Shown here piece by piece: positions 2,364 to 25,982 of a DNA stretch of 64,000 nt. How positions within the stretch are numbered: the stretch's first letter is position 1; every line of letters starts with the position of its first letter. Below the pieces are notes generated by a model. It was not told the origin of the DNA, did no database searches, and saw only the letters and a program-made list of their open reading frames with translations. The DNA is from Patescibacteria group bacterium (GTDB lineage Bacteria > Patescibacteriota > Patescibacteriia > Magasanikbacterales > UBA922). The stretch covers positions 846-64,845 of the forward strand of contig JAHJIX010000002.1 of NCBI GenBank assembly GCA_018823045.1, in the 5' to 3' direction. A program made the translations under genes and the position numbers.

Positions 2364-2404
2364 AATATCTGTGATATTATGTACCTATTAAAAAAAGATC
2401 AAAT

Positions 2405-2512
2405 CTTGGCGGCTACCTACTTTTGCCTTACGACTATCATCGGCGCAAATGGGCTTAACTGCTGTGTTCGGGATGGAAACAGGTGTACCCCCATCGCAAG
2501 AACCACCAAGAT
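2405..2512 (-). rRNA. rrf: 5S ribosomal RNA
   Basis: Reverse complement reads ...cccgaacacagcagttaagc...gcgccgatgatagt..., matching 5S loop C/E consensus (CCGAACUCAGAAGUGAAAC, GCGCCGAUGGUAGU); termini form a long helix (gatcaaatcttggtgg / ccgccaagatttgatc). Confidence 0.8.
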
Positions 2513-2584: not shown

Positions 2585-5625
<3,041 letters not shown>

Positions 5626-9273: not shown

Positions 9274-9279
9274 AGACTG

Positions 9280-11664
9280 TTATGATAATGATTTAGTCCC
9301 CTCTTTTCGCTTCATTCCTTTTATAGGAATAAACACATGAAATGTAGTCCCTTTATCTTTAGCAGAAACAAAACTAATTTTTCCATTTACTTGATCGAGA
9401 ATTGATTTAATAATATATAAGCCCAAACCAGTCCCCTCAGTATCTGTTTCTCGTACATTATCTGCACGAAATAATTTACTAAATATTTTATCATGCTGTG
9501 ATTTTGGAATACCTAAACCATTGTCAGCAATAATAATTTGTACATATTTTTTATCTGCTTTAATGGTCAAACTGACTTTTCCTCCTTCTTGATTATATTT
9601 AACTGCATTTGACAATAAATTTTGAAAAATCATGTATGTCAATTTTTTATCCAAATTCATTTTTGCTAATTTTTTTGGAAATGTTGTTTCTATCTTAATT
9701 TTCTTTTGTGCTGCTTGAATTTCAATTTCTTCAAGCGCTTCTTTTGCAATATCAATTAACTGCAGTGATGTGGGCTCAATTAAAAATGTTCCTAATTCTA
9801 AACGAGAAACATTTAACAGTGAATTAACCAACTCAACCATCCTCTGATTTCCTCTATAAATTTCTTGTACATACTGACTTTGTTCAACAGTCAAATGCCC
9901 TGCATCGCCATTTAACAACATTTCGGCATACCAATTAATAGCAGAAAGTGGTGTTCTTAATTGATGAGACGCTAAAGAAACAAACTCTGTTTTTGCCTGA
10001 TCTACTAATTTTTCTTGCGTTATATCTCGCTCAATACCGACAAAAAAGATCACCTCTCCTCTATTATTTAATACAGGAGTAATACTTGCTTTTGCAATAT
10101 ACTCTTCTCCACTTTTTCTTCTATTTTTAAATGCCCCCTCAAAACTTTTTTTATTATCTTTTGCAGTTTTCCATAATTCTATATATGTTTTTTGATCCAT
10201 GTTTCCTCCCCAATTTGCTGGTGAGCCTGCTTTTTGACCCAACACCTCTTCTCGACTAAAACCAGTAATTCTTTCAACAGCATTATTTGCATACAATACA
10301 ATTCCATCTGCATCAGTGATTACAATATGATCAGAAGCTTCTTCTACTGCTAATTGAAATTTTTTTAAATCATTTGCAAGTAATACTGATTTATCTCTTT
10401 CTTCTTCAACATCTTCTAAAATATTTAAAATTGCAACTTTTTGGTCTTCTAAATCTTGTGTTTGCTCTGCTAATCTATTTGTCTGATCTACAACAACCTT
10501 ATCTATATTCTTTTTTGACTGTACAATACCCTGAACTAATACATTAAACGAATGAACTAATCGTGATAATTCAAAAATCTTACCAACTTCTTCATTAATT
10601 TTTTCTTTATAATTTCCAGCAATAACATTCTCCATTTTTTGTTCAAGAATAGTAATTGGCTTGAATAGGTGCATAAGTAAATATGACAAAATAACTCCAC
10701 TTACTAATATAGTACCAACAATCCCCAAACCAACATACACAGTCAATAGATATACTGATTCTAAAAAACTTCCATCTTCTTGGACTAACAGATATACAGG
10801 CCAATCTCCTACCTGTGCATATGCAAAAATAACATTTCCATAATTATAATCTATTTCACCAACCAAACTACTATATTCACCAAATACTTCTTGCGAAATA
10901 AACACGTCTTCTAGAGGAAAAATAGTCTGGCCAACATACCGTTTTTGTTCAACAAATTCTTTTTCTATATCTTCTAATGGAAATATACTCTTAAAGATAT
11001 TTTTTTGTTGATCAGAAGAAAAAACAACTCCCCTATCATCTATATATGAAACAACCACTGAATGTTTTTTTTCATAAGCAAAATCATGTTGAACAAGGTT
11101 TTCTTTTGTTTTTAATACAACAACTCCCTTAAAATTTCCTTGAATATCCAATATTGGCTGTGAAAAATACAGCCCTAATTCTTTACTCGTAACACCCAGT
11201 GCCATATCTAGATATCCCGTTCCTGTCTTTTGTGGAACAAGAAAATAATCACGAAATCCATAATTTTTATTTAAAAAACTTTCATCAGTTGAAGCAATCG
11301 TTTTTCCATAACTATCCATGATATACACAACCAAGTAATCTTCTGAAAACAAATAGCCTTCCAAATATGTATGTACCTCTTCTTGCGAAATAGTTCCTTT
11401 CAAAAAATCACTTATTATCTGAGATGTCGCAATATGTTGAGGAACCTCTTGCGTTTTTCTAAAAAAGGAATCTACCATTAGTGATCGATCTTCAACCGAA
11501 TGAAAAAGGGTATTCTCTTTTTCTTGAATTAACTCTGCCTTTAAGAAAAAAAATATCATCAAAAAACTCACCAGTCCTAAAATGACCGCCATGATAAGGG
11601 TATTTTCTACAACATACCACTGGAGTGTTTTTTTTCTTTTCATAGAAATACTATAACGTATCAA
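9280..11664 (-). CDS. Sensor histidine kinase (TM - periplasmic dCache-like domain - TM - HAMP - PAS - HisKA - HATPase_c)
   Basis: Two TM segments bracketing an about 270-aa extracytoplasmic domain; 'LASHQLRTPLSAI' H-box; 'DNGLGIP...GTGLGLYI' G1/G2 boxes. Confidence 0.85.
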   Translation of the reverse strand: MIRYSISMKRKKTLQWYVVENTLIMAVILGLVSFLMIFFFLKAELIQEKENTLFHSVEDRSLMVDSFFRKTQEVPQHIATSQIISDFLKGTISQEEVHTYLEGYLFSEDYLVVYIMDSYGKTIASTDESFLNKNYGFRDYFLVPQKTGTGYLDMALGVTSKELGLYFSQPILDIQGNFKGVVVLKTKENLVQHDFAYEKKHSVVVSYIDDRGVVFSSDQQKNIFKSIFPLEDIEKEFVEQKRYVGQTIFPLEDVFISQEVFGEYSSLVGEIDYNYGNVIFAYAQVGDWPVYLLVQEDGSFLESVYLLTVYVGLGIVGTILVSGVILSYLLMHLFKPITILEQKMENVIAGNYKEKINEEVGKIFELSRLVHSFNVLVQGIVQSKKNIDKVVVDQTNRLAEQTQDLEDQKVAILNILEDVEEERDKSVLLANDLKKFQLAVEEASDHIVITDADGIVLYANNAVERITGFSREEVLGQKAGSPANWGGNMDQKTYIELWKTAKDNKKSFEGAFKNRRKSGEEYIAKASITPVLNNRGEVIFFVGIERDITQEKLVDQAKTEFVSLASHQLRTPLSAINWYAEMLLNGDAGHLTVEQSQYVQEIYRGNQRMVELVNSLLNVSRLELGTFLIEPTSLQLIDIAKEALEEIEIQAAQKKIKIETTFPKKLAKMNLDKKLTYMIFQNLLSNAVKYNQEGGKVSLTIKADKKYVQIIIADNGLGIPKSQHDKIFSKLFRADNVRETDTEGTGLGLYIIKSILDQVNGKISFVSAKDKGTTFHVFIPIKGMKRKEGTKSLS

Positions 11665-11968
11665 CTAATTCTTGAATTTCTTTTCTATGTTTTTGAACCA
11701 TCTTTTGGTCACGAAATTTTTCAGCAAATACCTCTAACTTATCAAGTACTTTTTGCAAACTTTCCTTTGTTGGTTGATCAAAATCTCCACCAACTTCTTG
11801 AAATATATTTTTGACTAACTCAGTACAGTATTGTTTACTCACTTCTTTATCCCCCTCAACACCGGTGTCTGTACAATGCGCTTCTCCAAAGCATGTCACC
11901 AAAGCATCTCGCACTTTTGATGGCGTCATATGTTCTGTTTTTTCTATACCATATACTTTTTTGGTCAT
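11651..11968 (-). CDS. Hypothetical small soluble protein (Cys/His-containing) wedged between GAF-PAS gene and histidine kinase
   Basis: 105-aa ORF overlapping the kinase start by 14 nt; no recognisable motif. Confidence 0.4.
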   Translation of the reverse strand: MTKKVYGIEKTEHMTPSKVRDALVTCFGEAHCTDTGVEGDKEVSKQYCTELVKNIFQEVGGDFDQPTKESLQKVLDKLEVFAEKFRDQKMVQKHRKEIQELVDTL

Positions 11969-11969
11969 A

Positions 11970-13238
11970 TCATTTTTTCTTATAATTGAGTAGTTGTTTT
12001 GTTAAATCATCTACTTCATCTTTTAATTTTCGCATTTTTAATTCTCTTCCAATCATAAATTTATTTAACTTTTCTAAATCATTCATTTTGCCTTTTACTA
12101 TTTCTTCTTGTTTCTTTTTTTCTGTAATATCTACAAAACTTTCTATTCCACCGACAATACCCCCCTGTTCATTATATAAATAATCAACGTTTTTTTCTAT
12201 CCAGAGTAACTCACCTGTTTTCGTCTTAATAGAACATTCTTTATTAAGTATTGGCTTTATTTCTTTATCATTATATAATCCACATTTTTCTCTACATGGC
12301 CCTACAGCAAATGTTTTGCAACTTTTTCCTAATACCTCTTCTTGAGAATACCCGGTAATTTCTTCTGCATGTTTATTCCAAGACAATATATGTTGCTCTT
12401 TATCGACAGTAAAAATAGCTGTTGGTATGAAATTCACGATACTTTCAATGCGTTTATGCTCTTCAAATAATTCTTTCTTTGTTTGATCTCTTTCTAAAAT
12501 AATAGCAAACTGATGAGCCGCGGCATGCAACATAAATTCTTGATTAACATCCCAGTTTCTTGCATGACGACAGTCATCGACTCCAACAAACCCCCACCAA
12601 CTTTCTTCAATAAATATAGGAACAACAAGTATAGACTCAATTTTCTGTGGAGTAAATAATTTTTTTTCTCCTACTGAAAAATCTTTTTTATTTTTTGCAA
12701 TTGATTTTCCACTTGATAATACATTTATCCAATGCTTTAAGCCTAAATCAAGAAAAGAGACATCTTTCACATATGATGCACCTTCTTGAGAACTTACCCC
12801 TTTTGCAGTCCATTCAGCAATCTGAGATGTTATAATCTTATTATTTTTTCCAACTCCATTTTTAAATATATATACCCTACTAACGTCAATTCCCATACCC
12901 AACAAAACAAGTAGCTCTTTGATATTTTTTTTTGTTACTCCCTCTAACATAAAAATACCAAAAAATTTCACCAATTGACGAAACAGTGTCATTTCTTTTT
13001 CTTGAAGCGTTTTTTGTTCTATAATATCATTTAGTTGCTTTAATACTATGTTTATTTTTTTACTCGCAAGTGCAACCGTATTTCTTTTTTTTGTTTGAGC
13101 AAATAGAGGAAGAGCTTGATTCTTTTTTATATATGTATCTAAAGAACAGATATGCTCCGATATCTGTTCATATGTTTCTATTTCTTTTTTATTTTTAGGA
13201 ATAGAAGACTTTTTTATTGTTTTTTTTGTGACAGACAT
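11970..13238 (-). CDS. GAF-PAS signalling protein with C-terminal coiled coil (no transmitter domain)
   Basis: Central GAF-like region ('...VVPIFIEESWWGFVGVDDCRHARNWD...') followed by PAS-like ('FTVDKEQHILSWNKHAEEITGYSQEEVLGKSC...') and a K/E-rich coiled coil. Confidence 0.55.
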   Translation of the reverse strand: MSVTKKTIKKSSIPKNKKEIETYEQISEHICSLDTYIKKNQALPLFAQTKKRNTVALASKKINIVLKQLNDIIEQKTLQEKEMTLFRQLVKFFGIFMLEGVTKKNIKELLVLLGMGIDVSRVYIFKNGVGKNNKIITSQIAEWTAKGVSSQEGASYVKDVSFLDLGLKHWINVLSSGKSIAKNKKDFSVGEKKLFTPQKIESILVVPIFIEESWWGFVGVDDCRHARNWDVNQEFMLHAAAHQFAIILERDQTKKELFEEHKRIESIVNFIPTAIFTVDKEQHILSWNKHAEEITGYSQEEVLGKSCKTFAVGPCREKCGLYNDKEIKPILNKECSIKTKTGELLWIEKNVDYLYNEQGGIVGGIESFVDITEKKKQEEIVKGKMNDLEKLNKFMIGRELKMRKLKDEVDDLTKQLLNYKKK

Positions 13239-13305: not shown

Positions 13306-13809
13306 TTAGCGAACAACACTAATTTCAGTAGTAGAGCCTTCTTCTTCACAAGAACGAATGGTAATAATACCAACAGCATCTTTTTGCAAAGTATATCCTG
13401 TTGTTGATGCACTCCATGTTCCATCACCATTTGGACTAATAGGTACTTGGCCTAAATATCCTTGAGTAACTAAACCACCCAAATCAAGACAGGCTGCTTG
13501 TGTTGGATCTGTTGTACAATAATCAATGACTGGAGCTCCTGTTGCTCCTGCGGCACAATCTCCAATTAAATAGACTTGTCCTGCAGTTGCATCTGCAATT
13601 GCAGTTAAGTATGGTCCTTGGTTATCTACCTGGTCAATTTTAATTGCATTTGCGAGTTCAGCAATGTCAGACCAACGACGTGCATCACGCGCATCTTGAA
13701 ATCGTCTTAATGGATCAAGAGCAACAAATACAACACCTGCGATAATTGCAATAATTGCAATTACAATCAATAGCTCAATGAGCGTAAACCCTTTTTTCTG
13801 CATAGGCAA
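13306..13809 (-). CDS. Type IV major pilin (prepilin; class III signal peptide)
   Basis: 'MPMQKKG|FTLIELLIVIAIIAII' with Gly(-1) and Glu(+5); 4 Cys in C-terminal half; about 50% identical to adjacent paralogue. Confidence 0.8.
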   Translation of the reverse strand: MPMQKKGFTLIELLIVIAIIAIIAGVVFVALDPLRRFQDARDARRWSDIAELANAIKIDQVDNQGPYLTAIADATAGQVYLIGDCAAGATGAPVIDYCTTDPTQAACLDLGGLVTQGYLGQVPISPNGDGTWSASTTGYTLQKDAVGIITIRSCEEEGSTTEISVVR

Positions 13810-13836: not shown

Positions 13837-14337
13837 CTATCTTGATAATACTATTTCGTCAGCCTGCTCTGATTCACAAGCACGAAGAAATAATGTCCCA
13901 TTATCTCTCTTTTCAATCGTATATCCAGAAAACTCGCTTGTCCATTCTTTTGCTCCCGCAGGACTCACAGGCAAAGAACCCATATACCCTTCAGTTAAAA
14001 AACCAACAAAATTTATACAAGCAGTGACTGCTGGATTTACATCACAATAATTCGTTATGTCCACTGCCGTTGCTCCATTTACACAAGTCCCAATTAAATA
14101 CACAGTACTTGTTGACATTTGCTCAATGACAGCCATATACTCACCATCGTTATCAATTTGATCTACTTTTATTGCGGTCAACATTTCTGATACTTCTTGC
14201 CAACGCACGGCATCACGTGAATGCTGAAAACGAAGTAATGGATTTAAAGCAATAAACATCGCTATCATTATAATACCAATTATTGCAATAACAATCAATA
14301 GTTCTATTAATGTAAACCCCTCTTTTTGCATATACAT
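13837..14337 (-). CDS. Type IV major pilin (prepilin; class III signal peptide), paralogue
   Basis: 'MYMQKEG|FTLIELLIVIAIIGII' with Glu(+5); conserved 'RWxxxxExxxAIKxDQxDNxG' and 'YLIGxC...GAT' blocks shared with 13306..13809. Confidence 0.8.
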   Translation of the reverse strand: MYMQKEGFTLIELLIVIAIIGIIMIAMFIALNPLLRFQHSRDAVRWQEVSEMLTAIKVDQIDNDGEYMAVIEQMSTSTVYLIGTCVNGATAVDITNYCDVNPAVTACINFVGFLTEGYMGSLPVSPAGAKEWTSEFSGYTIEKRDNGTLFLRACESEQADEIVLSR

Positions 14338-14395: not shown

Positions 14396-16174
14396 TTAAC
14401 CACCATCAACCACCTGTAATACGACTGTCATCGGGATAAAAAATTCATTATTCTTTTTAAATACCTCTCCATACTCAACAGTAGAAAATGTATATAATAA
14501 TTTCTCTGGTGGCTGTTCTTTTAAATAAATGAATACTTTTTCAAGTAACAAATCAGGATCTGATTCGTATACTAACCAAGTAAACCGTTGTGTACTACTT
14601 GTTGTTTCTACTTGTATAGGATTTTTATACACAACTTCTCCTGCAAAAATTTGATCTTCTACTAATAATTTTGAATCAGACACACTTGTTTGTGTATCAT
14701 CTACAACCAAACGTCCGGGAACACTATATGGCACAGTATCTGTGTCTAAACGTGTATGAATAGGCAATAATCCACTAAATTCTTTTTTAACAATTGTAGG
14801 TAAAAGCTGCGTATGCACTACCGATACCCTTTGACGATAATAATCTCTATACCAAAAAGCAGCAAGCAGTAACAAACCCCCGACAATCAAAACAGTTACA
14901 AGTAACCCAATTTTTCCCCAAGAACTTTCTTCTTTTATGTTGATTGTTTTTCTTTGAGATACAGTAACCTCTAAATCTTTTTCTTTTAAATCATCTAAAC
15001 GAGTAATTTCATCTTTTCCAACATCTACAGATTCTTCGTCTATGGACTCTGAAATCACTTCTAGTTTTTCATTTTTATTTTCTTTCTTTCCTTCTTTTTT
15101 AGACACAATTATTTTTGGAATATCAAACTGAAACCGACTTTCAAATAATGATGTCTTTAAAGCACGACAAGCAAGACCAATTGCTTCAATAAACAACAAT
15201 GGTGTTTGCTTTTCCATATACGGAGATGAAGCAATGCTCGTGGTCTTTTCTAATTTTTTCTCAATATATGGAGCCAAACCACTCATCCGACTAGAGTGCC
15301 CTGCAATAATGATAGTGCCCACAACACTATCGTACTGACTTTCATAATAGGCAAGTGTCTTTTTAATATCAACAATAAGCTCATCTACCTGTTTTTGTAA
15401 CGCAACACTAACCCGATCTTTTTTAACAATTCCTTTTGTTTTTTTCTTTTTTTCAACATCGGCTTTTTTTACTCGAGTAGCCATTGCTGCTTTTGCGGTA
15501 AAATAATTACCTGCAACTTGACTCGTATGGCTAAACGCAAAACCATTTTGATCAACAATATAGATATTACTCGTATATGCCCCAATATCAACAATACAAG
15601 CAGGCTCTTTGGGCATTACAGAAAAAATTCCATTAACCAGTGCCACAGCCTCACTATCAAATGCTACAATTGGAATACGTGCTTTTGTTAACACCCTATT
15701 CCATGCTTCAAATACGTGCTTTTCCATTGCTCCTACTAACACACGAATACCCAATGTTTTATGCTCTTGCAATATAGAATAACTATACAATAATGACTCC
15801 ATCGGAATAGGCATAATTGACGCAATCTCTTTTTTGATATGGCTATCTCTTTGCCTTTTCTTTACCCATGGAATTTGAATAATATGCGTATATACAATTG
15901 CACCCGGTAAACCAATAACAACATTTTTTAATTCAATTTTTTTAGGCTTTGCACGACTAGCAACCTCTTTTAATGCCTCAAGCAATGCCACCTCATCTTT
16001 TACCACCCCACGCTCAAGTACTCCTTCTGCTAATTCAACGCGACCAAAAGAAACAATTTTCATCTTCCCTGCATTTTTTTTCAATAACACAATTTCGATA
16101 TCCCTATCTTGAATATCGAGTCCAATTGCTTTTGAAGAAAAAACACCCATAAAAAAAATTATTCTTGTGTCCAA
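14396..16174 (-). CDS. pilM: Type IV pilus assembly protein PilM (actin-like ATPase) fused to a TM-anchored PilN/PilO-like C-terminal domain
   Basis: N-terminal about 350 aa PilM/FtsA-like ('IGLDIQDRDIEIVLLKK...VDIGAYTSNIYIV'), K/E-rich linker, one TM (LLVTVLIVGGLLLLAAFWY), then an about 160-aa extracytoplasmic domain. Confidence 0.75.
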   Translation of the reverse strand: MDTRIIFFMGVFSSKAIGLDIQDRDIEIVLLKKNAGKMKIVSFGRVELAEGVLERGVVKDEVALLEALKEVASRAKPKKIELKNVVIGLPGAIVYTHIIQIPWVKKRQRDSHIKKEIASIMPIPMESLLYSYSILQEHKTLGIRVLVGAMEKHVFEAWNRVLTKARIPIVAFDSEAVALVNGIFSVMPKEPACIVDIGAYTSNIYIVDQNGFAFSHTSQVAGNYFTAKAAMATRVKKADVEKKKKTKGIVKKDRVSVALQKQVDELIVDIKKTLAYYESQYDSVVGTIIIAGHSSRMSGLAPYIEKKLEKTTSIASSPYMEKQTPLLFIEAIGLACRALKTSLFESRFQFDIPKIIVSKKEGKKENKNEKLEVISESIDEESVDVGKDEITRLDDLKEKDLEVTVSQRKTINIKEESSWGKIGLLVTVLIVGGLLLLAAFWYRDYYRQRVSVVHTQLLPTIVKKEFSGLLPIHTRLDTDTVPYSVPGRLVVDDTQTSVSDSKLLVEDQIFAGEVVYKNPIQVETTSSTQRFTWLVYESDPDLLLEKVFIYLKEQPPEKLLYTFSTVEYGEVFKKNNEFFIPMTVVLQVVDGG

Positions 16175-16569
16175 GACACAATATCTATACCATTGTTGAG
16201 ATCAACTCCAACAACAAGCGTTGTATAAAAATGATCATCAATATCTGCGTTTACAGTTACCGTTTGTAAACCACCTCCATTGTCTACTACTTCTATTATA
16301 CATGAATTTACTCCATCATTCAATGTACTTCCATTATAATTACTGTCTTGTCTTAATTGTTCTAATCCTTCATGTACACAGCCTTCTGCAAATGCTAAAC
16401 TCTCTCTTCCTTGTTGCATGGTGTACCCCATTTCTAAATCATTAATACCCAAAAAAGAAGCAGAAAATGCCATAATAAGCGCAGCAGCTCCTACCACCAC
16501 AACTAAAAGAAGGGCTGCAAATCCACGATGATTAGTGCAAAGCAATTGCGGTTTGAATCGATTGATCAT
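16159..16569 (-). CDS. Putative PilX/ComGG-like minor pilin (hydrophobic N-terminus without Glu+5)
   Basis: '...NHRG|FAALLLVVVVGAAALIMAF' resembles a prepilin leader and TM but lacks E5; start uncertain; overlaps upstream gene by about 40-70 nt. Confidence 0.4.
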   Translation of the reverse strand: MINRFKPQLLCTNHRGFAALLLVVVVGAAALIMAFSASFLGINDLEMGYTMQQGRESLAFAEGCVHEGLEQLRQDSNYNGSTLNDGVNSCIIEVVDNGGGLQTVTVNADIDDHFYTTLVVGVDLNNGIDIVSWTQE

Positions 16570-17056
16570 AGATGAAATCAGGGTCAGTTGTATCGGCATA
16601 ATAATTTGTTGTTATATCAAGTTGAATACTTCCTGGCGTATTTGGAACAGCAATATGATGCAAAAGAAAAGTCTCTAATTGTACTTCAGCACTTGTGATT
16701 ACTACTGCAGGATCTGCTCCTTGTTGAATATATAATCGTCCATTATCTTGATCAAGTGAAAATACGGTTGGATCTTTTGCAACATCATTCATTTGTAAAG
16801 ATAGCACCCCCGGATCACTATCAAACACAGAAGCACCTATATTTATTCCTGAAGCTTCATGCACATGACGCGTAATCACATCAAGAGCAATTCTATTATT
16901 TGCGTGTACTTCTTGCACAACATACGTTTTTGTGCGCGAAGAAGTAACAGCTAAAATAAAAGAGATAAAGGTTACCAATACACCACTAATAATTGCAATA
17001 TACAAAATAGTTTCTACAAATGAAAATCCGCGTTTATTTTGAATGATCTTTTGCAT
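16532..17056 (-). CDS. Minor pilin / pseudopilin (prepilin-type N-terminal cleavage-methylation domain)
   Basis: 'MQKIIQNKRG|FSFVETILYIAIISGVLV' with Glu(+5). Confidence 0.7.
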   Translation of the reverse strand: MQKIIQNKRGFSFVETILYIAIISGVLVTFISFILAVTSSRTKTYVVQEVHANNRIALDVITRHVHEASGINIGASVFDSDPGVLSLQMNDVAKDPTVFSLDQDNGRLYIQQGADPAVVITSAEVQLETFLLHHIAVPNTPGSIQLDITTNYYADTTDPDFIYDQSIQTAIALH

Positions 17057-17057
17057 A

Positions 17058-20000
17058 TTATTTATAATTTACTTGGACACGCTCTAAAATAGGCGTACCC
17101 ACAGTGTCACCATGTAATATCGCTTGATATTGTATCCACCGATCCCCATTATAGACTGTTGGGACAAGCGAACCAATTGCTTCTGTATAAAATGTTCCAG
17201 CCTCATTTATACCGCTCCATGGTGCTGCTGCTAAATTTCCTTGCGTATCGGCTGTTCGAATTTGTAATTGAATAGAACATCCAATACAATTTGAAAATGA
17301 TTCTTCCCAAGTGAGTCCTTGTATTGCACGAGTATTTGCTCCCATATCATATGCAGAAGATATGTATGTTCCAGATAATGCATACGATGCAGGACCTCCT
17401 CCTCCACCAACGGGCGGAATAAACACATCGGGTCGTTCATAATCTACACGCACTTCAGAAAATTGTGGTGTATGAGTTGCATGCTCACTACTTAATACTG
17501 CACGATATTGAAAATATTGCCCATCAGTAATTGCTAAATTATATGATGGAACACCAACAACCCCAGCTTGATCAAAATATGTTCCTCCTGTCCCATCAGA
17601 ACCCGTATAGGCATCTCCAACACACAATACATCATTACAACTTCTTACTTGATATGTAATATTTAATATTCCCCGTCTATAGCGATCAAGAATCTCTTGC
17701 GCAGATAATACACGACTATATAATGCCATTTCATCAAAAGTAGCGACAACGCCATTTCCTACAACAAAATCCTCGTTATTTACTGCTATGTTTTGTGTAT
17801 ATGTCCCAGTAGCGACTTCTACACCATTAATATATAACTTTTGTTGATCAGCAACTTCATCTTTATTATAGGTTAATACAATATGATTCCACCCTGCAGA
17901 TAAAGTAGAAGAAACAACACTATCATTAATAAACGCAGATACATCAGCACTACTTAATGAAAAACCATAGGAGTTATTTTTTCCAATAGCAATATGTACA
18001 TCTCCACCACCAAAACTAAAAGTGCTCACCCACCCATGATTTACAACATCGGTATATGCCCCGAGTAAGAGACCATTTCCTAAAGACAACATATAAGGAT
18101 AGCGTCCATTACTAATAAACTGATATGAATCAACAACTGCATTTCCTATTTGTCCATTATTTTCTATTTCCACCACCTTTAAATACCCATTATTATTATT
18201 TCCGGTATAAAATACAGCATAATTATTATCACTCATATGAACCAGCGAGCTCATTATCGTATTATCGGTATCAAATTCAAGACTATCAATTTCTGCACCA
18301 ATTTGTCCATTAACATCAATCGTTACTGTCTTAATAAACCCATCACTCCCAGAACCTTGATGAGAAATAGCATATACATCTCCACTAATTGCAATAATAT
18401 CAGGATAGCGTCCTTGTGATGTATTATATTCAAACGTATCAATAATACTACCCACAATATTTCCATTATCTTCTATCTCAATTGTTTTAATAAATCCATC
18501 ACTATCTACACCACTATAGACAACCGCAAAAATATTATTTCCTACTTCTATTAAATCAGTTTCAAAACAATCAGTATTATCAAACTCGTAACGATCAATA
18601 TAATTATTTGAAATATTACCCGTAGCACTAATATCTACAGTGGCAAACCACCCATCACTACTATCTCCTCGATAAGAAATAACAAATGTATCTGCATCAA
18701 CAGCTAATACAGAAGGAGACAAACCATTTTTATTATCATATTCCAAACTATCAATTTGATTCCCAATTTGACCATTTGCCTGAATATCAAATGTCTTTAT
18801 CCAACCATCACTTCCTAGACCAGCATACACCACAGCATAAATACTTCCATTTACTTGCACAATTGTTGGTGTCGTCCCATAACTAGTATCAAATTCCTTA
18901 CTAAATAAACTGACAATATTTTGGCCACTTGCATCGACAGAAAATGTTTTCATCCACCCATCATTTCCTGGACCACGATACACAACCGCATACACATCTC
19001 CACTAATATTAATAATTTTTGGATAATATGATTGTGAAGTATCATATTCCAAACTACCAAGCAAACTTTGTTCAATCGTCAATTCACTACTACTATCAGC
19101 ACTATCTTTTATCCACATTTCAATTGTTATATCATCAGAAATATCAAGACTTGCATTATCTGCAATTGTAATGGCGTCACTCCCCCCCTCCAAACGAACT
19201 GCTGTGTCATAGCGTCCGCTTATTTCATATGATAATCCTGTGGCAACTCCATCATTTCCATTACCTGAAGTATCAAGCACATTACCACTTGCTTCATCTA
19301 AATGTAATAAAAAGATATTATTACTCATAGAAATATTTCCTTGTATATACCCTACTTCTGTAGCTCCATTATTTGGTAAAGCAATTCCGTATGGTTCGTT
19401 TGGTACCCAAGAAAAATCTTGCCATGTTGCTGTAGAAGTCACATTAAATACTTCTGAAATATATTCTCCTGTACCATTTACTAAACCTGTCGCATTAAGC
19501 AACACATTTGTTCCATTCCACTCTGTATCATTATATGTTCCTGTATTAAATTCATCTGTCGTATCATCAATAATACTTTCAGCAACCGTTGCAATATTGC
19601 CACATCCTTCTCCAATAGTCACACTGTATAACTTTGGATTAGTCATTTGGTCAATACTTTCAAATGTTGTTTGATATTGAATATACTTACTTTGTGCAAT
19701 GGTACCACTCACTGTTACAGATGGTGTTGTGAGTGTACTATTTAATAATTCAGAAAAATATGTACTATTAGTTCCATCTGGACCAATAAAATTTTCACCC
19801 GCACACAATTCATCATCACAAGAGCGAATCTGATGTGTTAAATTGGCTGCTCCACGAATATAGCGATCTGAAATTTCTTCAGCACTTAATACTCTATTAT
19901 ATATAGCAACTTCATCAAGTGTTGCTCCATCAAGAGCCCATTGACTATTACTTGAAAGAGTCAAGTCGTCAGGAATAATATCAATTGGCCCTGCAACATT

Positions 20001-22256
20001 ATAACTATTAGGGTCTTCGACACCATCTATATAAAAATGAAGTAGCCCTGCACCATAAGTAACAGCCACGTGATGCCAACGTGTGTTATCAATTGTATTT
20101 AAGCTAAAGAAATCATCACTATTCAACTGAAATACTATTTGCCCACTATTATCAATCCATACTGAATACGATTCATCATAAGCTCCCTTTGTCAAGATAT
20201 CAGGCTGTCCTGAATAATCACCATTAATCCAAAATTCGATACTCAAGGTATCAGTCAAATCAAGTGCAGCACTACTTACACAAGAAATATAATCATCAGT
20301 AAACGTATATGCACTATTATATTTTCCATTATTTGTTATTGCAGCTCCATTGTTTGTACATGAATGCCCCTGTCCTGAATCATCATCCAAATTACCATTC
20401 AAGTGCATTAATAACACATTGCCACTCATATCAATAGCACCATCTGTATAATCAATTTCAATACCCTCATCATTTGGCAATTCTTTTCCATATGGGAAAG
20501 CGCTCATCCAAGAAAATGTTTGCCAGTCTATTAATTTATTTGTATCAATAACTTGTGACGTAAATATACCACTATTATTTGTCAATCCAGTATTATCAAG
20601 CTGCAGATGATCTACACTAAACTCTGTATTAGTATAATCACCAGCATCCCATTCTGCTTGTGTATCTTCTCCAATATCCACACAGGCACACCCTACTTCT
20701 TTATACCATCCAATTTCGTTATCATCCCCCTCAGAAACAACAAAAAAGTAAGACCCCAATATACTCCCTTGATGAATCACACTTGATGCACCATCATAAT
20801 CAAATACCGTATGCTCTAGCACATTTGTCGGGTCATCAATACCAAACATGACAAACTCCTCATCCCATTTTGCTTGTGCAGAAAATATATAATCTCCAAG
20901 TACTGTTAAACGATCAAAGTTTGTTGTTCCTCCACCATAACTAAAAGTATCATCGAGTACTGGATTATCTGGATTGGAAATATCAATACTATACATATTT
21001 CCTGTCCAATTATCTGCAGAAGCAAATATATGTGTATCCTTTAACACAATATCACTTAATTTTACCCACCCAGGAAAATCAATGCCACCAACAGCACTAA
21101 TATTTGCAACATCGCTAATATCGAGCACAATAAACTCAGTATCTCCTTCTGTTGCAAGATACGCATAATCACCATCTACACTCACACCCAATATATTTTT
21201 ATCTACATCATATAATGATGCAGGATCTACTAAATCAATAGCAAGTGGATTTAAAATATTTAAGATAAAAAATTCAGCGCCTGCACCATTTTGCTCTGTC
21301 ACCACATATGCAACGTTCCCGTCAATATAGATATCATATGCATCAAGTGCCGCACCTACAATATCATATGTCGCGACTTCGGTAATTGCTCCTGGATTTG
21401 AAATATTTACCACACTTAATTCATCATTTTGTGCTTTTGCAATATAGGCATAATTTCCTGAAATAGCTATTTCATGAATCGTATTTCCAAGATCAATACT
21501 GCTTGTTTCTACCAATGTTGTCGGGGCAGTAAAACTATAAGCATGCAACATTGTGCCACGACCCACAAATATATGGGTATCTGTTGAGGCAATGGTGGTG
21601 GCATCATCAACTCCTGCCATATCAAAAGAAGCAACAGGCTCTATACAATCCCAAGGAGAATCTCCACCACCAGGCGTATACTCAAGTACAACAGCACCAT
21701 CACCATCTCCTAAAGTATTTGATACTTCAACAGCATTTAATGTTCCATCAGAAAATTCTGCCGTGGTATCCTCAATCCACTCATATGAATCCCAGTTTGT
21801 TAGATACATGACTTTTCTTACTTCATTGGTCAAACCAGGACGAATCTCCCAAGACACAAGAACTAACGCTTTTTTTGAATAAATATCAACATGATCTCCT
21901 GGGCAATTGACAATATTATTATGTACATCACGACACACATCTTCAAAAGTAATTGTTCGTGTATATTGACCAATCGTTTCACTCGTCCCCTCTCCCTGAA
22001 AACTCCACCCATCTACAGTAGTAGTTACATCACTTTGGGCATAATCAAATTCATTCCAAGCACGATCTTGAATAGCACGCACCGCAGCTAATCCTTCTTG
22101 CGCAAGTGCTTCGGCCTGCGTTTGTTCCCCTCCTTGCTCTAAACCAGCAAAGCCACCACCAGATAGTGCAATCAATGCAACAGCACTTAACGCAAAAATA
22201 GTCATTGCTAAAATGACTTCTATCAAACTTTGCCCTTTTTTAGAAAAAAATACCAT
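17058..22256 (-). CDS. Giant (1732 aa) prepilin-signal protein: putative pilus-associated adhesin with LVIVD-type beta-propeller, two LamG/ConA-like lectin modules and a 7-repeat beta-propeller
   Basis: N-terminus 'MVFFSKKG|QSLIEVILAMTIFAL' (Gly-1, Glu+5); 'GNYAYIA...NISNPG' LVIVD-like repeats; two modules with 'WHHVAVTY...LHFYIDGV' / 'WNHIVLTY...LYINGV' LamG cores each followed by 'LNxTxQxRSCxDxLCxG'; seven about 51-aa repeats 'YAVVYxGxGSDGWIKT'. Confidence 0.8.
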   Translation of the reverse strand: MVFFSKKGQSLIEVILAMTIFALSAVALIALSGGGFAGLEQGGEQTQAEALAQEGLAAVRAIQDRAWNEFDYAQSDVTTTVDGWSFQGEGTSETIGQYTRTITFEDVCRDVHNNIVNCPGDHVDIYSKKALVLVSWEIRPGLTNEVRKVMYLTNWDSYEWIEDTTAEFSDGTLNAVEVSNTLGDGDGAVVLEYTPGGGDSPWDCIEPVASFDMAGVDDATTIASTDTHIFVGRGTMLHAYSFTAPTTLVETSSIDLGNTIHEIAISGNYAYIAKAQNDELSVVNISNPGAITEVATYDIVGAALDAYDIYIDGNVAYVVTEQNGAGAEFFILNILNPLAIDLVDPASLYDVDKNILGVSVDGDYAYLATEGDTEFIVLDISDVANISAVGGIDFPGWVKLSDIVLKDTHIFASADNWTGNMYSIDISNPDNPVLDDTFSYGGGTTNFDRLTVLGDYIFSAQAKWDEEFVMFGIDDPTNVLEHTVFDYDGASSVIHQGSILGSYFFVVSEGDDNEIGWYKEVGCACVDIGEDTQAEWDAGDYTNTEFSVDHLQLDNTGLTNNSGIFTSQVIDTNKLIDWQTFSWMSAFPYGKELPNDEGIEIDYTDGAIDMSGNVLLMHLNGNLDDDSGQGHSCTNNGAAITNNGKYNSAYTFTDDYISCVSSAALDLTDTLSIEFWINGDYSGQPDILTKGAYDESYSVWIDNSGQIVFQLNSDDFFSLNTIDNTRWHHVAVTYGAGLLHFYIDGVEDPNSYNVAGPIDIIPDDLTLSSNSQWALDGATLDEVAIYNRVLSAEEISDRYIRGAANLTHQIRSCDDELCAGENFIGPDGTNSTYFSELLNSTLTTPSVTVSGTIAQSKYIQYQTTFESIDQMTNPKLYSVTIGEGCGNIATVAESIIDDTTDEFNTGTYNDTEWNGTNVLLNATGLVNGTGEYISEVFNVTSTATWQDFSWVPNEPYGIALPNNGATEVGYIQGNISMSNNIFLLHLDEASGNVLDTSGNGNDGVATGLSYEISGRYDTAVRLEGGSDAITIADNASLDISDDITIEMWIKDSADSSSELTIEQSLLGSLEYDTSQSYYPKIINISGDVYAVVYRGPGNDGWMKTFSVDASGQNIVSLFSKEFDTSYGTTPTIVQVNGSIYAVVYAGLGSDGWIKTFDIQANGQIGNQIDSLEYDNKNGLSPSVLAVDADTFVISYRGDSSDGWFATVDISATGNISNNYIDRYEFDNTDCFETDLIEVGNNIFAVVYSGVDSDGFIKTIEIEDNGNIVGSIIDTFEYNTSQGRYPDIIAISGDVYAISHQGSGSDGFIKTVTIDVNGQIGAEIDSLEFDTDNTIMSSLVHMSDNNYAVFYTGNNNNGYLKVVEIENNGQIGNAVVDSYQFISNGRYPYMLSLGNGLLLGAYTDVVNHGWVSTFSFGGGDVHIAIGKNNSYGFSLSSADVSAFINDSVVSSTLSAGWNHIVLTYNKDEVADQQKLYINGVEVATGTYTQNIAVNNEDFVVGNGVVATFDEMALYSRVLSAQEILDRYRRGILNITYQVRSCNDVLCVGDAYTGSDGTGGTYFDQAGVVGVPSYNLAITDGQYFQYRAVLSSEHATHTPQFSEVRVDYERPDVFIPPVGGGGGPASYALSGTYISSAYDMGANTRAIQGLTWEESFSNCIGCSIQLQIRTADTQGNLAAAPWSGINEAGTFYTEAIGSLVPTVYNGDRWIQYQAILHGDTVGTPILERVQVNYK

Positions 22257-22259
22257 AGA

Positions 22260-22733
22260 CTATAATGATTCAATTGCACCAAATGCATTTACTGAAACAG
22301 AAAATGTTCCTTGAATTGCATGAGTAATGATCACGGTCCCTGTATTTTGTGCGTCTCCCAATCCTTTCGTAAATACTATGTCAACATCGCCACCAGTCAA
22401 AGCAAAACCAGCTGTTGTTACTTCAAGCACTGGCTCAAATATATATGTTCTGTCATATGCAGGATCACGCAAAGCATAGCTATCTCCCTGATAAAATATA
22501 TATACATCATCTCCTGCAGGATCACGGTCAATAAATATACCATGTGACGCATCATTCACTCCTGCAACCGCTTCTTGACGTGCTTGACGCAATACAGAAA
22601 TCAACTGTGCACCAGATTCATCTAATTGTGCTCGTGTTTGAAATTGTGAATACACCGGAATTCCAGCAACAACCAAAAGAGTGCTCAAAGCAATAACCAT
22701 TAACAATTCAACTAACGTTACACCCTTTTTCAT
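22260..22733 (-). CDS. Pseudopilin (GspH/FimT-like, prepilin-type N-terminus)
   Basis: 'MKKG|VTLVELLMVIALSTLLVV' with Glu(+5); ORF-track start at 22811 would overlap pilC, internal ATG at 22733 preferred. Confidence 0.7.
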   Translation of the reverse strand: MKKGVTLVELLMVIALSTLLVVAGIPVYSQFQTRAQLDESGAQLISVLRQARQEAVAGVNDASHGIFIDRDPAGDDVYIFYQGDSYALRDPAYDRTYIFEPVLEVTTAGFALTGGDVDIVFTKGLGDAQNTGTVIITHAIQGTFSVSVNAFGAIESL

Positions 22734-22743
22734 AAAAAATAAC

Positions 22744-23838
22744 TTAGCGCTTAATACTTCCGGTAATATTATAAATTGGTGTAATAATTGAAATTGCAAG
22801 AAAAGCAACAATCATTCCGATACCAAGCAAAAGTATTGGCTCAATTGCAGTTGCTAAACTCTTTGTCGCATTATCAACTTCCACCTCATAAAATTCAGCC
22901 AAATAATTAAGTGTATCTTCTAAATTTCCTGATTCTTCTCCCACCAACACCATACGCGTTACCATTGAGGGAAACAATCTTGGATACAAACCCAAATTTT
23001 CTGCCATACTACTTCCTTTTTCTAAACGATGCAATACTTTATCAAGTGCATGTTGATAATAGTAATTTCCTAATGATTGACGAGTCACAGCAAGTGCCTC
23101 ATCAACATTTAAACCACTACGAAGCAATGTGGATAATGTTCGTGAAAATCGTGCCAAATTAACATTATGACTAATTGAGCTTAATACTGGAAGATGAAGA
23201 AGCAACCAATGACTAATTGGACGCATAAATTTTCTCCTAAACAACCAAATAACAAAGAGAACTGTTCCCGTAATGCTAAAAAATAATAAAGGTCCATGAT
23301 CGTTTACAATTTGTGAAAATTGAATGAGTAAACGAGTACTCAAAGGTAACTCCGTTTTTAATCCTTGAAATAATGGAATAATTTTCGGCAAGACTAAAAA
23401 GGACATGGTCATTGCCAAAATAAATGAAGCAATCAACACCACAATTGGATAGAGCATTGCTCCTTTTACCTTACTCACCAAATTTTTTTCTTTTTGTAAT
23501 TGCTCTGCTAAATGTTCTAAATTTTCGTCAAGTGTCCCTGATTTTTCTCCAGCATAAATTGCACTAATAAAAATACCTGGAAAAATATTATCATACCGTT
23601 GAAATGCATCTGACAATGAATTACCAGATTCAACTGATTCTCTAATCTTGATCAAAATATTTTTCATTTTTCCTTGTGCAGAATCAGCAACAATATCAAG
23701 AGACTCTACAATACTCAAACCAGACCGTTGCATAACGGCCAAATGTTTTGCGAGCAATGCTTTTTGGGTGAGACCAGTTCCACCAATAGCAATATTTTTC
23801 TTCAATACTGAAATTTTTTTCTTTTTTTTGACAGGCAT
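22744..23838 (-). CDS. pilC: Type IV pilus inner-membrane platform protein PilC (GspF family)
   Basis: Two GspF-type repeats ('LSxAFxRYDNIFPGIFISAIYAGEKSGTLDENLEHLAEQL' and 'LYPRLFPSMVTRMVLVGEESGNLEDTLNYLAEFYE') and 3 TM segments. Confidence 0.85.
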   Translation of the reverse strand: MPVKKKKKISVLKKNIAIGGTGLTQKALLAKHLAVMQRSGLSIVESLDIVADSAQGKMKNILIKIRESVESGNSLSDAFQRYDNIFPGIFISAIYAGEKSGTLDENLEHLAEQLQKEKNLVSKVKGAMLYPIVVLIASFILAMTMSFLVLPKIIPLFQGLKTELPLSTRLLIQFSQIVNDHGPLLFFSITGTVLFVIWLFRRKFMRPISHWLLLHLPVLSSISHNVNLARFSRTLSTLLRSGLNVDEALAVTRQSLGNYYYQHALDKVLHRLEKGSSMAENLGLYPRLFPSMVTRMVLVGEESGNLEDTLNYLAEFYEVEVDNATKSLATAIEPILLLGIGMIVAFLAISIITPIYNITGSIKR

Positions 23839-23906: not shown

Positions 23907-25592
23907 TTATGTTTCAGCTACACGCAAAATTTCTTCTAATGTTGTCACACCATTAAAAACCTTATCCATTCCATCTTCAAGCAAGGTAATCATTCCTTCT
24001 TTTATTGCTTGCTCTTTAATTTCATCACTTGATCCTTGATTTACAACAAAAGGCCGAATTCCTTCAGACATTTCAAGCACCTCAAAAATACCAATACGAC
24101 CATGATACCCAGTATCTCCACAAATTTTACAGCCAGCTCCTTTATATAAACGCCATTTACTTGGCGCATCATAGCCCTTACTTTTTGCAAGCCCTAATAA
24201 TTCATTTCTTCCCTTTAAAATAAGTTTATCTTCTTCGGTTAACCTATATGATGCACGACAATGTGTACAAATCTTTCGAACCAAACGCTGTGCAATAATA
24301 ATATTAATCGTTGAGGCAACCAAAAACGGCTCAACCTCCATATCGAGCAAACGTGGCAATGTTGTTGGTGCATCATTAGTATGCAAAGTAGAAAGAACCA
24401 AATGTCCTGTTAAGGCGGCATTCGTTGCAATATTTGCCGTCACTTCATCACGAATCTCTCCCACCATAATAATATCAGGATCTTGACGCACCAATGATCT
24501 TAATCCTTTTGCAAACGTTAAATCTGTTTTTGTATTTACTTGAATTTGCGTAACTCCTTCAACATTATACTCAACAGGATCTTCAATCGTTGCAATATGA
24601 ATTTTACGCTCATTTAAAATTTTCAATACTGCATATAATGTTGTGGTCTTTCCACTTCCGGTTGGTCCTGTCACTAATACCATACCATGCGGATGACGAA
24701 TTGCTCGCTTAATTTTTTCTAAATTTACAGAAGCTAAACCAATATCTGTTAAACTAAATTGTCTATTTTTTTGAGTCAACAAACGCATCACAATATTTTC
24801 CCCATGCACAGATGGTAAAATAGATACACGAACATCTACCCGTTGCTTACTAGTTGAAAATTTAAACTTTCCATCTTGTGCCGCTCGATGCTCATCAGTC
24901 CGCATTTTTGACAAAATTTTAATACGAGTCAAAATAGCATCAGAGAATTCTTTTGGTAATTCAAGCACATCATGCATTACCCCATCTATACGAAACCGAA
25001 CAACAATCTTTGTCGCATATGGCTCAACATGGATGTCTGACGCTTTATTTTCAAATCCATACTGCATCAAAATATCAACCATTTCCACCACTAATTCATC
25101 CCGAGATTCACGACTTCTTTCTTTTTCAAACACATCTAAAAGCTCTTTAAACTGCTCTTGCATGTTTGATTTATATAATGCAATAGCTTTATCAAAGTCT
25201 TCTTCTAAAATAAGATATACTTTAATCTTACCAAAACGTTTTTCTAACAACTCACGTACAGGTAAATTTGACGGATCGAGCATACCAATCTTCATTTCAT
25301 TTTTTCCTTGTGAAAAAGCAATTACACCTTGTTTTTCTGTCACTGCTTGCGGAATAGACACAATTGCTTCTGCATCAATTCTCATCGTATCAAAATCTGC
25401 AAATGGAACCTGATAATACTCTGCCAACCCCTCACCCAATACCTGCTTGTCTAAAATTCCTTCAATAAAAAAATAATCCAAAAGGGTTCCCCCATGGGAA
25501 TCTACAAACTCTTGTGCAGCAACAACATCTTTTTCATCAATATAATGCTGCTCCAACAAGATATCTTTTATCTGCGCGTCATCGATACGCAT
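23907..25592 (-). CDS. pilB: Type IV pilus assembly ATPase PilB (GspE family)
   Basis: Walker A 'VTGPTGSGKTTTLYAVL', Asp box, Walker B, His box, tetracysteine motif 'CTHC...CKIC'; N-terminal GspII-like domain. Confidence 0.9.
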   Translation of the reverse strand: MRIDDAQIKDILLEQHYIDEKDVVAAQEFVDSHGGTLLDYFFIEGILDKQVLGEGLAEYYQVPFADFDTMRIDAEAIVSIPQAVTEKQGVIAFSQGKNEMKIGMLDPSNLPVRELLEKRFGKIKVYLILEEDFDKAIALYKSNMQEQFKELLDVFEKERSRESRDELVVEMVDILMQYGFENKASDIHVEPYATKIVVRFRIDGVMHDVLELPKEFSDAILTRIKILSKMRTDEHRAAQDGKFKFSTSKQRVDVRVSILPSVHGENIVMRLLTQKNRQFSLTDIGLASVNLEKIKRAIRHPHGMVLVTGPTGSGKTTTLYAVLKILNERKIHIATIEDPVEYNVEGVTQIQVNTKTDLTFAKGLRSLVRQDPDIIMVGEIRDEVTANIATNAALTGHLVLSTLHTNDAPTTLPRLLDMEVEPFLVASTINIIIAQRLVRKICTHCRASYRLTEEDKLILKGRNELLGLAKSKGYDAPSKWRLYKGAGCKICGDTGYHGRIGIFEVLEMSEGIRPFVVNQGSSDEIKEQAIKEGMITLLEDGMDKVFNGVTTLEEILRVAET

Positions 25593-25610: not shown

Positions 25611-25982
25611 TTATTTAAGAATCTTTTCTATATGCTTAATAACATCAGATAAGGGTGTATTTGATTTAACAAAATAATCTTTTGCCCCTAATTCACGCAC
25701 CCGTTTTTCATCTTGCTCTTGACTCAAATTGGTTGAAACAATAATCGGTACTTTTATTTTTTTCTGTTTTACTTGCTCGAGCACTCCAAACCCGTCTAAT
25801 TTAGGCATCACTAAATCAAGCAATACCAAATCAATACCACCTTTTACTAAGAAATCAATCGCTTCTTGCCCATTATTTGCTACGGTAACATCATAGCCGA
25901 TATGCTGTAATTTTAACTGCAGTGCTTTTGCCATTGGTTTCTCGTCTTCTGCTACGAGAATCATTTTTTTCTTTCCTGCCAT
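25611..25982 (-). CDS. Stand-alone response-regulator receiver protein (CheY/PilH-like) immediately upstream of pilB
   Basis: 'ILVAEDEKPMAKAL...IDLVLLDLVMPKLDG...' receiver signature, 123 aa. Confidence 0.75.
   Translation of the reverse strand: MAGKKKMILVAEDEKPMAKALQLKLQHIGYDVTVANNGQEAIDFLVKGGIDLVLLDLVMPKLDGFGVLEQVKQKKIKVPIIVSTNLSQEQDEKRVRELGAKDYFVKSNTPLSDVIKHIEKILK

Follow-up and report, generated by a model that had tools for sequence, protein, structure and literature searches.

A 5199-nucleotide (nt) open reading frame (ORF) on the minus strand of the 64,000-nt stretch of Patescibacteria DNA analyzed here ("the window", contig JAHJIX010000002.1, to which all coordinates refer) encodes a protein of 1732 amino acids (aa), which we interpret as a giant modular minor pilin. 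Profile matches indicate that this protein and its relatives keep an N-terminal pilin head and a C-terminal beta-sandwich "tail" and swap the cargo between them at one fixed insertion site, and profile coordinates within its own cargo place a beta-propeller inside a LamG domain that itself lies inside a beta-sandwich. We consider it fairly probable that the giant pilin belongs, as a modular minor pilin, to a type IV pilus of Patescibacteria, with lectin cargo that would be displayed at the pilus tip and bind glycans of a host or substrate.

Results

Gene and protein

The gene (17058..22256, minus strand) starts with ATG, and the ORF has a G+C content of 34-37%, the same as the flanking DNA; an open frame of 5.2 kb at this composition rules out a chance origin. 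The ORF was present as reported in a first-pass annotation of the window, and all sequence strings quoted there were found. NCBI lists an identical protein under the name 'hypothetical protein KKG22_03295 [Patescibacteria group bacterium]'; it occurs on 3 contigs from independent sources. The predicted mature protein, of ~1724 aa and 186 kDa, is acidic (isoelectric point, pI, of 4.05; K+R, 3.5%). Pfam and NCBIfam scans matched no glycoside hydrolase family in it. A self-BLAST was uninformative, and the internal duplications were resolved with profiles. A DNA repeat search found no DNA-level repeats within the gene, which indicates that the protein repeats are old. Two possible sources of variability were considered and rejected for the window, namely, a diversity-generating retroelement (no template/variable repeat pairs in the window) and recent DNA duplication (no DNA repeats in the gene).

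A conserved head and tail with exchanged cargo

About 30 of 42 homologues share with the giant pilin only two parts, the head (at 52-61% identity in most cases) and the final ~110 residues (at 34-48%), and their middles are mutually unrelated. Further, a head-profile scan of species-representative genomes recovered 80 loci with ORFs of ~140-2414 aa, 28 of which end in the tail domain. These loci span Magasanikbacteria, Falkowbacteria, Paceibacteria, Peregrinibacteria, Gracilibacteria, Shapirobacteria, Saccharimonadales, and numerous further candidate phyla radiation (CPR) lineages. At least 126 non-identical head-plus-tail relatives, 303-2414 aa in length, were identified, and the minimal members (P0113 and P0161, 318 aa; L024, 330 aa; L037, 313 aa) comprise just the head and one contiguous sandwich of ~145 aa. 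As an insertion-site test, a 317-position profile was built from five minimal members and run on all fetched proteins. It splits into a head match and a tail match in 128 proteins, with the head match ending at profile positions 200-219 in 89 and the tail match starting at positions 190-209 in 109 of these 128; between them lies an insert of 0-2104 aa (median, 729). These profile coordinates show, at the sequence level, relatives that keep head and tail and swap their cargo at one fixed site.

The comparative check proposed in the first-pass annotation, on whether modules shuffle between related genomes, thus came out in its favor: the 126 non-identical members carry five cargo classes in 13 combinations. 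Specifically, 'GEIYYQLS' domains occur in 57 members, BNR-like repeats in 31, PLL-like blades in 23, sandwich+LamG modules in 18, and LVIVD propellers in 8; the gene studied here is the only one to combine an LVIVD propeller, a PLL-like propeller, and LamG. Head similarity does not go with cargo type: the heads of LVIVD-bearing members are 28-52% identical to the query head, compared with 54-61% for the majority of heads that bear other cargo. This fits cargo exchange between lineages. Most family members have no Pfam match whatsoever, and surveys of modular pilins based on InterPro signatures would therefore miss them. Despite an evident Patescibacteria-type pilus operon, several contigs bear the public record title 'uncultured Gammaproteobacteria bacterium' (L006, L007, L009, L011, L014, and others) or 'Vicinamibacterales' (L026); these are probably mislabelled or mis-binned metagenome-assembled genomes (MAGs).

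The tail (aa 1622-1732; 17061..17393) follows a GGGGG linker and was delimited from an alignment of 27 sequences with a mean column identity of 52%, the profile of which matches the tail of the giant pilin with an E value of 6.8e-41. AlphaFold2 predicts an all-beta domain at a predicted local distance difference test score (pLDDT) of 50-72; the tail profile had no match among Protein Data Bank (PDB) sequences, and the domain has no Pfam match. Just after the head lies a first segment (aa 160-197, WIEDTTAEFSDGT...GDGAVVLE; 21666..21779), which alignments and the minimal relatives identify as a homologue of the opening strands of the sandwich modules described below. In minimal relatives, the first segment is joined straight to the tail domain, as in L037, whose first segment is of the same type as that of the giant pilin ('DF.SG...VEV...GDGAVQIE'). 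The first segment may pair with the tail as a single sandwich domain, split by the cargo, a reading that fits the disorder of residues 156-198, the first-segment region, in an AlphaFold2 model that lacks the tail.

An exhaustive search with the tail profile returned 3455 cluster representatives at E <=1e-3, of which 240 have E <=1e-30. Among the best 144 new tail-bearing representatives, 72 begin with the family head and end, at the extreme C-terminus, in the tail. Other tail-bearing proteins are giant surface proteins with a Sec signal, 1400-5969 aa long and with 3-7 internal copies (e.g., P0045, P0049, P0055, and P0152), and the domain is therefore not specific to pilins. A 'FNQTDWSGG' motif opens many of these Sec-signal proteins right after the signal peptide and comes after the pilin head in the majority of family members.

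Pilin head and class III signal peptide

The N-terminus reads MVFFSKKG/QSLIE, followed by ~22 hydrophobic residues (aa 1-23 are MVFFSKKG/QSLIEVILAMTIFAL). The leader (aa 1-8; 22233..22256) ends in Gly-1, and both the sequence and the family alignment predict a prepilin peptidase cut before Q9, with Glu at +5. The features by which prepilins are recognized, a short basic leader, Gly-1, Glu+5, and ~20 hydrophobic residues, are all present (MVFFSKKG/QSLIEVILAMTIFALSAVALIAL). In an alignment of family heads, Gly-1 is found in 22 of 26 and Glu+5 in 23 of 26, and the Cys108/Cys118 pair is conserved. The head proper (aa 9-156; 21789..22232) was assigned by AlphaFold2, profiles, and homologues. An AlphaFold2 model of residues 1-575, made with a 31-row alignment, packs a long N-terminal alpha-1 helix (residues 11-63) on an antiparallel beta-sheet (residues 76-153), i.e., the "lollipop" fold of pilins; pLDDT is mostly 84-93 in the head and falls to 56-64 at residues 61-90. 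Taken with the surrounding type IV pilus operon, these results bear out the prepilin-type N-terminus claimed in the first-pass annotation, and sequence and model together support reading it as a class III signal peptide attached to a pilin head, making the giant pilin a predicted substrate for prepilin peptidase.

The type of pilin is less clear. The prepilin model TIGR02532 scores 13.4 on the full protein and 16.9 on the head alone (cut-off, 16.3). NCBIfam models of pilin subtypes match the 26 family heads, in every case below cut-off (ComGE in 23, GspI in 21, XpsI in 17, and PilV in 16), and for the giant pilin itself, GspI reaches an E value of 1.6e-4 (22 bits versus a cut-off of 44) and PilV 19.8 versus 52. 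A search of PDB sequences with the head profile returned no GspI and nothing meaningful. Gene order also points to the I slot: the gene is second in a set resembling the H-I-J-K minor pilins, with a K subunit that lacks Glu5, and this order is kept in three related loci (L001-L003, described below). Together, gene order and sub-threshold profile matches suggest, inconclusively, that the head fills the I position.

Cargo domains

The first cargo domain is an LVIVD-type beta-propeller (aa 200-522; 20691..21659), flanked by Cys204 and Cys523/525, equivalents of which flank the propellers of two relatives (P0002 and P0012). The first-pass annotation had recognized it from its repeats (NYAYIA at aa 268 and ISNPG at aa 285), correctly so: Pfam LVIVD (PF08309) matches at an E value of 5.7e-14 (51.6 bits versus a cut-off of 20.2), and AlphaFold2 models seven blades with a pLDDT above 90. 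Foldseek returned generic WD40-like seven-blade matches for this propeller (E, 6e-11).

The propeller is followed by two modules in which a beta-sandwich hosts a LamG/concanavalin A (ConA)-like domain. Pfam Laminin_G_3 (PF13385) matches the giant pilin in three stretches (E, 2.4e-35; 122.4 bits versus a cut-off of 27.6), the best of which, aa 654-796, lies in LamG-1. Module 1 (aa 523-882; 19611..20690), delimited with composite-module and tail-domain profiles, is a sandwich into which LamG-1 (aa ~589-801; 19854..20492) is inserted. Module 2 (aa 891-1608; 17433..19586), delimited in the same way, is a sandwich containing LamG-2, which holds a propeller of its own. The evidence comes from a 'sandwich+LamG' profile built from the contiguous modules of four other proteins, which matches module 1 unbroken (E, 3.5e-82) and module 2 in two parts: aa 891-1099 correspond to profile positions 3-220 (E, 4.7e-45), and aa 1433-1608 to positions 203-383 (E, 1e-38). 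The gap is filled by seven ~51-aa repeats (aa 1064-1414), which places the second propeller inside LamG-2. The tail-domain profile is likewise split on both modules, matching with positions 7-35 at aa 560-588 and 39-112 at aa 802-881 in module 1, and with positions 6-35 at aa 926-955 and 42-115 at aa 1532-1607 in module 2. Thus, profile coordinates show a three-level nesting of sandwich, LamG, and propeller, with one LamG copy complete and the other split by the propeller.

These coordinates amend the first-pass annotation, which had described two duplicated modules, each a LamG core followed by a Cys-containing motif, with a seven-blade propeller of ~51-aa repeats between them. The duplication and the LamG cores stand (WHHVAVTY and FYIDGV at aa 727 and 741; WNHIVLTY and LYINGV at aa 1455 and 1473). 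The Cys motif (RSCxDxLC; LTHQIRSCDDELCAG at aa 806 and ITYQVRSCNDVLCVG at aa 1533), rather than being an appendix of LamG, corresponds by the split tail-profile matches to a strand and loop of the LamG-hosting sandwich, and the equivalent loop of the uninterrupted terminal sandwich carries Cys1657/1660. The seven blades also stand, and it is their placement that changes, from between the modules to within LamG-2.

The nested propeller (aa 1064-1414; 18015..19067; repeat string YAVVYAGLGSDGWIKTFDI at aa 1140) was assigned by AlphaFold2, Foldseek, and a blade alignment. AlphaFold2 models it as 28 strands in 7 x 4 arrangement with a pLDDT above 90, and the seven repeats align with one another. 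In a Foldseek search of the PDB with the model containing this propeller, the sugar-binding Photorhabdus PLL/PHL/PLL2-5 and Chromobacterium CV39L lectins filled the first 21 ranks and accounted for 27 of the 28 best matches, the best having an E value of 2.5e-12 and a target-normalized template modeling (TM) score of 0.76, at identities of 13-16%. Like the PLL-family lectins, this propeller has seven four-stranded blades, spans ~350 aa, and is built from ~50-aa repeats; unlike those free, soluble proteins, it is an insert in the LamG domain of a pilin and has no detectable sequence homology to them. By its modeled fold, it is a candidate lectin that may bind sugars.

The LamG and sandwich assignments rest on Pfam and profile evidence. 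Module 1 returned nothing meaningful against PDB sequences, and fold searches with whole models were dominated by the propellers. In the alignments for the AlphaFold2 models of residues 560-1732 and 880-1732, MAFFT drew the C-terminal halves of the modules onto the tail domain whenever fragments of the tail were among the rows, which fits homology of the tail with the module sandwiches. Rows with LamG alone shifted into the propeller region, and an 11-row alignment was used instead.

Genomic context

All of the pilus genes are encoded by the minus strand and closely spaced, with the giant pilin gene separated from its neighbors by 1-3 nt or overlapping them, as also in L001-L003. Their order is response regulator, PilB, PilC, H-like pilin, giant pilin, J-slot pilin, K-slot pilin, PilM fusion, and two major pilins. 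The giant pilin thus occupies the second minor-pilin slot, within an H-I-J-K-like set that directly follows pilB-pilC, encoded alongside PilB, PilC, PilM, and other pilins. The first-pass annotation had placed it in a minor-pilin slot, and the neighbors agree, with an H-like pilin upstream and two small minor pilins downstream. The three related loci (L001-L003), from a Candidatus (Ca.) Magasanikbacteria MAG and two Joint Genome Institute (JGI) metagenomes, have an identical gene order, with a giant of 2009, 1221, or 954 aa in this slot.

The extension ATPase PilB (23907-25592) was assigned from T2SSE (E, 1.6e-126) and an MshEN domain, and the platform protein PilC (22744-23838) from T2SSF (E, 5.6e-59). 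The H-like minor pilin (157 aa, MKKG/VTLVE; likely 22260..22733) scores 19.7 with TIGR02532 (cut-off, 16.3) and has sub-threshold XpsH, GspH, and ComGD matches. Its listed ORF begins with a TTG at 22811 and overlaps pilC by 68 nt; an internal ATG is favored, given that it yields a canonical prepilin start and a length of 157 aa that matches the 143-166 aa of related loci. The J-slot pilin (174 aa, KRG/FSFVE; 16532..17056) has a weak ComGF match. The K-slot pilin (~135-146 aa, HRG/FAALL; 16159..16599) was recognized from its sequence, which, like that of capping K subunits, has no Glu+5; in L001-L003, an equally sized gene stands at this position. PilM (592 aa; 14396..16174; Pfam PilM_2, E 1.3e-22) is fused to a long membrane and extracellular extension of ~270 aa, made up of a transmembrane segment and an extracellular part, where L001 and L002 have an SH3_3 domain. 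The two tandem major-pilin paralogues (167 and 166 aa, G/FTLIE; 13837-14337 and 13306-13809) match N_methyl at E values of 9e-10 and 3.5e-8. They retain DNA-level similarity (repeat families D2 and D4; 528-nt spacing), and related loci hold one to three such genes.

Just upstream of pilB, domain calls identify a receiver-only response regulator (25611-25982). One to four receiver genes precede pilB in L001-L003, and the association with the pilus operon looks conserved. Downstream of the operon, at 8893-13238 on the minus strand, lie a further receiver-only response regulator, a dCache-PAS histidine kinase, and a GAF-PAS protein. Elsewhere in the window, a 23S ribosomal RNA (rRNA) gene (2588-5616, minus strand) measures 3029 nt against a 2925-position model and is accompanied by a 5S rRNA gene (2404-2510, minus strand). 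No 16S rRNA gene was found in the whole 64-kb window, and ORFs lie directly 5' of the 23S gene, so that the 16S gene appears unlinked. An 82-nt direct repeat in the ORF at 34771-35412 (213 aa), located at 34826-35276 on the plus strand with 72% identity and 369-nt spacing, suggests an internal duplication.

Discussion

Our results describe a pilin head that carries, in one polypeptide, Laminin_G_3 and LVIVD matches by Pfam and two propellers by modeling, and that therefore falls within the modular pilins sensu Raynaud et al. 2021, defined by a pilin module and at least one non-pilus domain. Known minor-pilin tip complexes and the modular pilins of monoderms (PMC9934059, PMC8179133) allow a mechanism to be proposed. 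A prepilin peptidase encoded elsewhere would remove the eight-residue leader, after which the head of the giant pilin and the three other minor pilins would form a priming complex on the PilC platform. PilB would then polymerize the two major pilins beneath, so that the complex would reach the distal tip, where there would be space for ~170 kDa of extra acidic domains; with a monoderm-type envelope, there would be no secretin to traverse. There, the two LamG domains and the PLL-like propeller, and possibly the LVIVD propeller too, would bind host or substrate glycans multivalently, pilus dynamics would draw the cell into contact, and the exchangeable cargo would determine what is recognized. 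Both tip display and glycan adhesion are, in this scheme, drawn by analogy.

Several observations weigh against it. The residue at +1 is Gln, where Phe or Met is usual, and Pfam N_methyl scores 20.1 bits on the giant pilin, slightly below its cut-off of 21.2. Of the profile searches proposed by the first-pass annotation, Laminin_G_3 and LVIVD cleared their cut-offs and N_methyl did not. The structure prediction it proposed had a similarly divided outcome: both propellers were modeled with a pLDDT above 90, but the LamG and sandwich parts, predicted from the 11-row alignment, reached a pLDDT of just 30-70 and are not confidently folded. A phmmer search with the repeat propeller against PDB sequences found no lectin, so that its PLL likeness is one of fold. 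No ligand is known for LVIVD propellers or for the tail sandwich. Assigning the head to the I type draws on sub-threshold matches and gene order; known I subunits are small (~100-140 aa) and non-modular, and a 1732-aa protein would be an unusual I carrier. Finally, a crude motif scan of the 64-kb window flagged neither a prepilin peptidase (peptidase A24) nor a second (PilT-type) ATPase.

There are other ways of reading the locus. The pilin-like N-terminus could be a membrane anchor or part of a priming complex or short pseudopilus, in which case the giant pilin would be an adhesin or sensor on the cell body rather than at the end of a long pilus. At 186 kDa, the acidic cargo is very bulky, residues 156-198 are predicted to be disordered and would suit a tether, and the motif scan of the window flagged no retraction ATPase, all of which would sit well with such a location. 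So would the observation that, in Nanosynbacter lyticus TM7x, PilX2 is dispensable for filament extrusion and neither PilX1 nor PilX2 has a predicted PilD signal (PMC11623550). We nevertheless regard a cell-body location as unlikely, given that minor-pilin HIJK complexes have been observed at tips (PMC9934059) and that the gene keeps its place among the minor-pilin genes strictly and is closely coupled to its neighbors. The family also conserves Gly-1 and Glu+5. Glu5 is important for pilin-pilin contacts within filaments.

Alternatively, the protein could be displayed at the tip with a different main role, i.e., the capture of nutrients, polysaccharides, or DNA for an auxotrophic cell, or the enzymatic degradation of polysaccharides. 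DNA uptake has been proposed for the type IV pili of CPR bacteria (PMC5220378), the commonest weak match of the family heads is to the competence pilin ComGE (23 of 26), and the ConA-like superfamily includes glucanases, according to its Pfam description. PF13385 is, however, a non-catalytic LamG family, no glycoside hydrolase family was matched, and the nearest folds to the nested propeller are lectins rather than enzymes; a glucanase reading of the ConA-like domains was considered and found unsupported. As for DNA, a pI of 4.05 with 3.5% K+R is ill-suited to binding it. We judge a main role other than host attachment to be quite improbable. That the gene is an artefact, whether chimeric through assembly or fused or decayed and without a functional protein, seems to us extremely improbable. 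The source is a metagenome-assembled genome and most relatives lack Pfam matches, but the reading frame is intact, the identical protein occurs on 3 contigs from independent sources, head and tail are conserved at both ends as in the 126 relatives, the composition matches the flanks, and there are no DNA repeats to drive mis-assembly. A tip-displayed, glycan-binding minor pilin is therefore the reading that we retain.

As a kind, such a protein is already known, and no new type of machine is involved. The survey of Raynaud et al. 2021 (PMC8179133) counted >1200 modular pilins in 264 architectures, and it lists LamG (PF13385) pilins, an example from Ca. Magasanikbacteria, and, as the most extreme entry, a Ca. 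Falkowbacteria pilin of 860 aa that has 12 LVIVD motifs. In Streptococcus sanguinis, PilB (pilin and vWA) and PilC (pilin, Ig-like, and ConA-like lectin) are tip-located modular pilins (PMC8179133, PMC9934059), and the ConA-like lectin module of PilC binds glycans (PMC8179133; Shahin et al. 2023, PMC9934059). The protein described here resembles these in its class III signal peptide, in the small pilin module that carries non-pilus domains, in being a monoderm-type minor pilin, and, as with PilC, in its ConA/LamG-type lectin module and proposed tip location. It differs in being twice the size of the most extreme pilin surveyed, with homologues of up to 2414 aa, in having several cargo domains in three-level nesting rather than one, and in cargo that is bracketed by a conserved tail rather than simply appended. 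Further, its carrier is, by gene order, an I-slot pilin, whereas the I-like PilA of S. sanguinis is a plain subunit (PMC9934059).

The nearest experimental precedent is from Nanosynbacter lyticus TM7x, where PilX2 is a pilin with a heptabladed PLL/CV39L-like propeller and PilX1 has a jelly-roll, L-type-lectin-like domain; deletion of pilX2 halves host binding, which is blocked by rhamnose (PMC11623550, 2024). The claim in the first-pass annotation that the architecture is probably undescribed is accordingly overstated, given that LVIVD- and LamG-bearing CPR pilins had been catalogued (PMC8179133) and lectin-like minor pilins of TM7x both described and mutated (PMC11623550). Compared by published description and fold, both systems have a Patescibacteria type IV pilus in which a pilin head carries a lectin-like domain, and the CV39L structure cited for TM7x in that study (6GXS) belongs to the PDB family that tops the fold search with our propeller. 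Unlike the bimodular PilX1 and PilX2, the giant pilin combines both kinds of domain with an LVIVD propeller, and its family keeps Gly-1 and Glu+5, in contrast to the TM7x proteins, which have no predicted PilD signal. The Saccharimonadales loci that we fetched (L071 and L072) also lack the tail domain.

The PilY1/PilC tip adhesins of diderm type IVa pili are likewise large, modular, and propeller-bearing and are displayed by a minor-pilin tip complex, making them functional analogues. PilY1 itself is not a pilin and has a C-terminal propeller family of its own. Membership of the giant pilin in the PilY1 family was rejected, as it has no PilY1-type Pfam or NCBIfam match and has its own pilin head. 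In the literature searched, we found no account of a pilin of 1732-2414 aa, of three-level nested insertion, of a conserved tail, or of a single fixed insertion site in >100 relatives.

On how the ultrasmall Patescibacteria recognize and hold their hosts, a 2024 perspective named tip-located minor pilins as candidates to test (PMC11665869). Outside Saccharibacteria, the locus studied here and its 126 relatives present one conserved minor-pilin slot with very large, lectin-rich cargo that differs by lineage. The head-plus-tail rule thus offers a way to find candidate host-range determinants in metagenomes and defines domains for glycan-binding tests. More tentatively, and as a possibility that we do not yet favor, the family may constitute a fixed-site scaffold for cargo display, in which the head and one loop-split sandwich would accept exchangeable cassettes of 0 to ~2100 aa, with the same insertion logic repeated inside the cargo. 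If so, it would be the pilus-tip equivalent, in Patescibacteria, of the exchangeable receptor-binding modules of phage tail fibers, and the combination of cargo would be a readable predictor of the host or substrate of an uncultured episymbiont.

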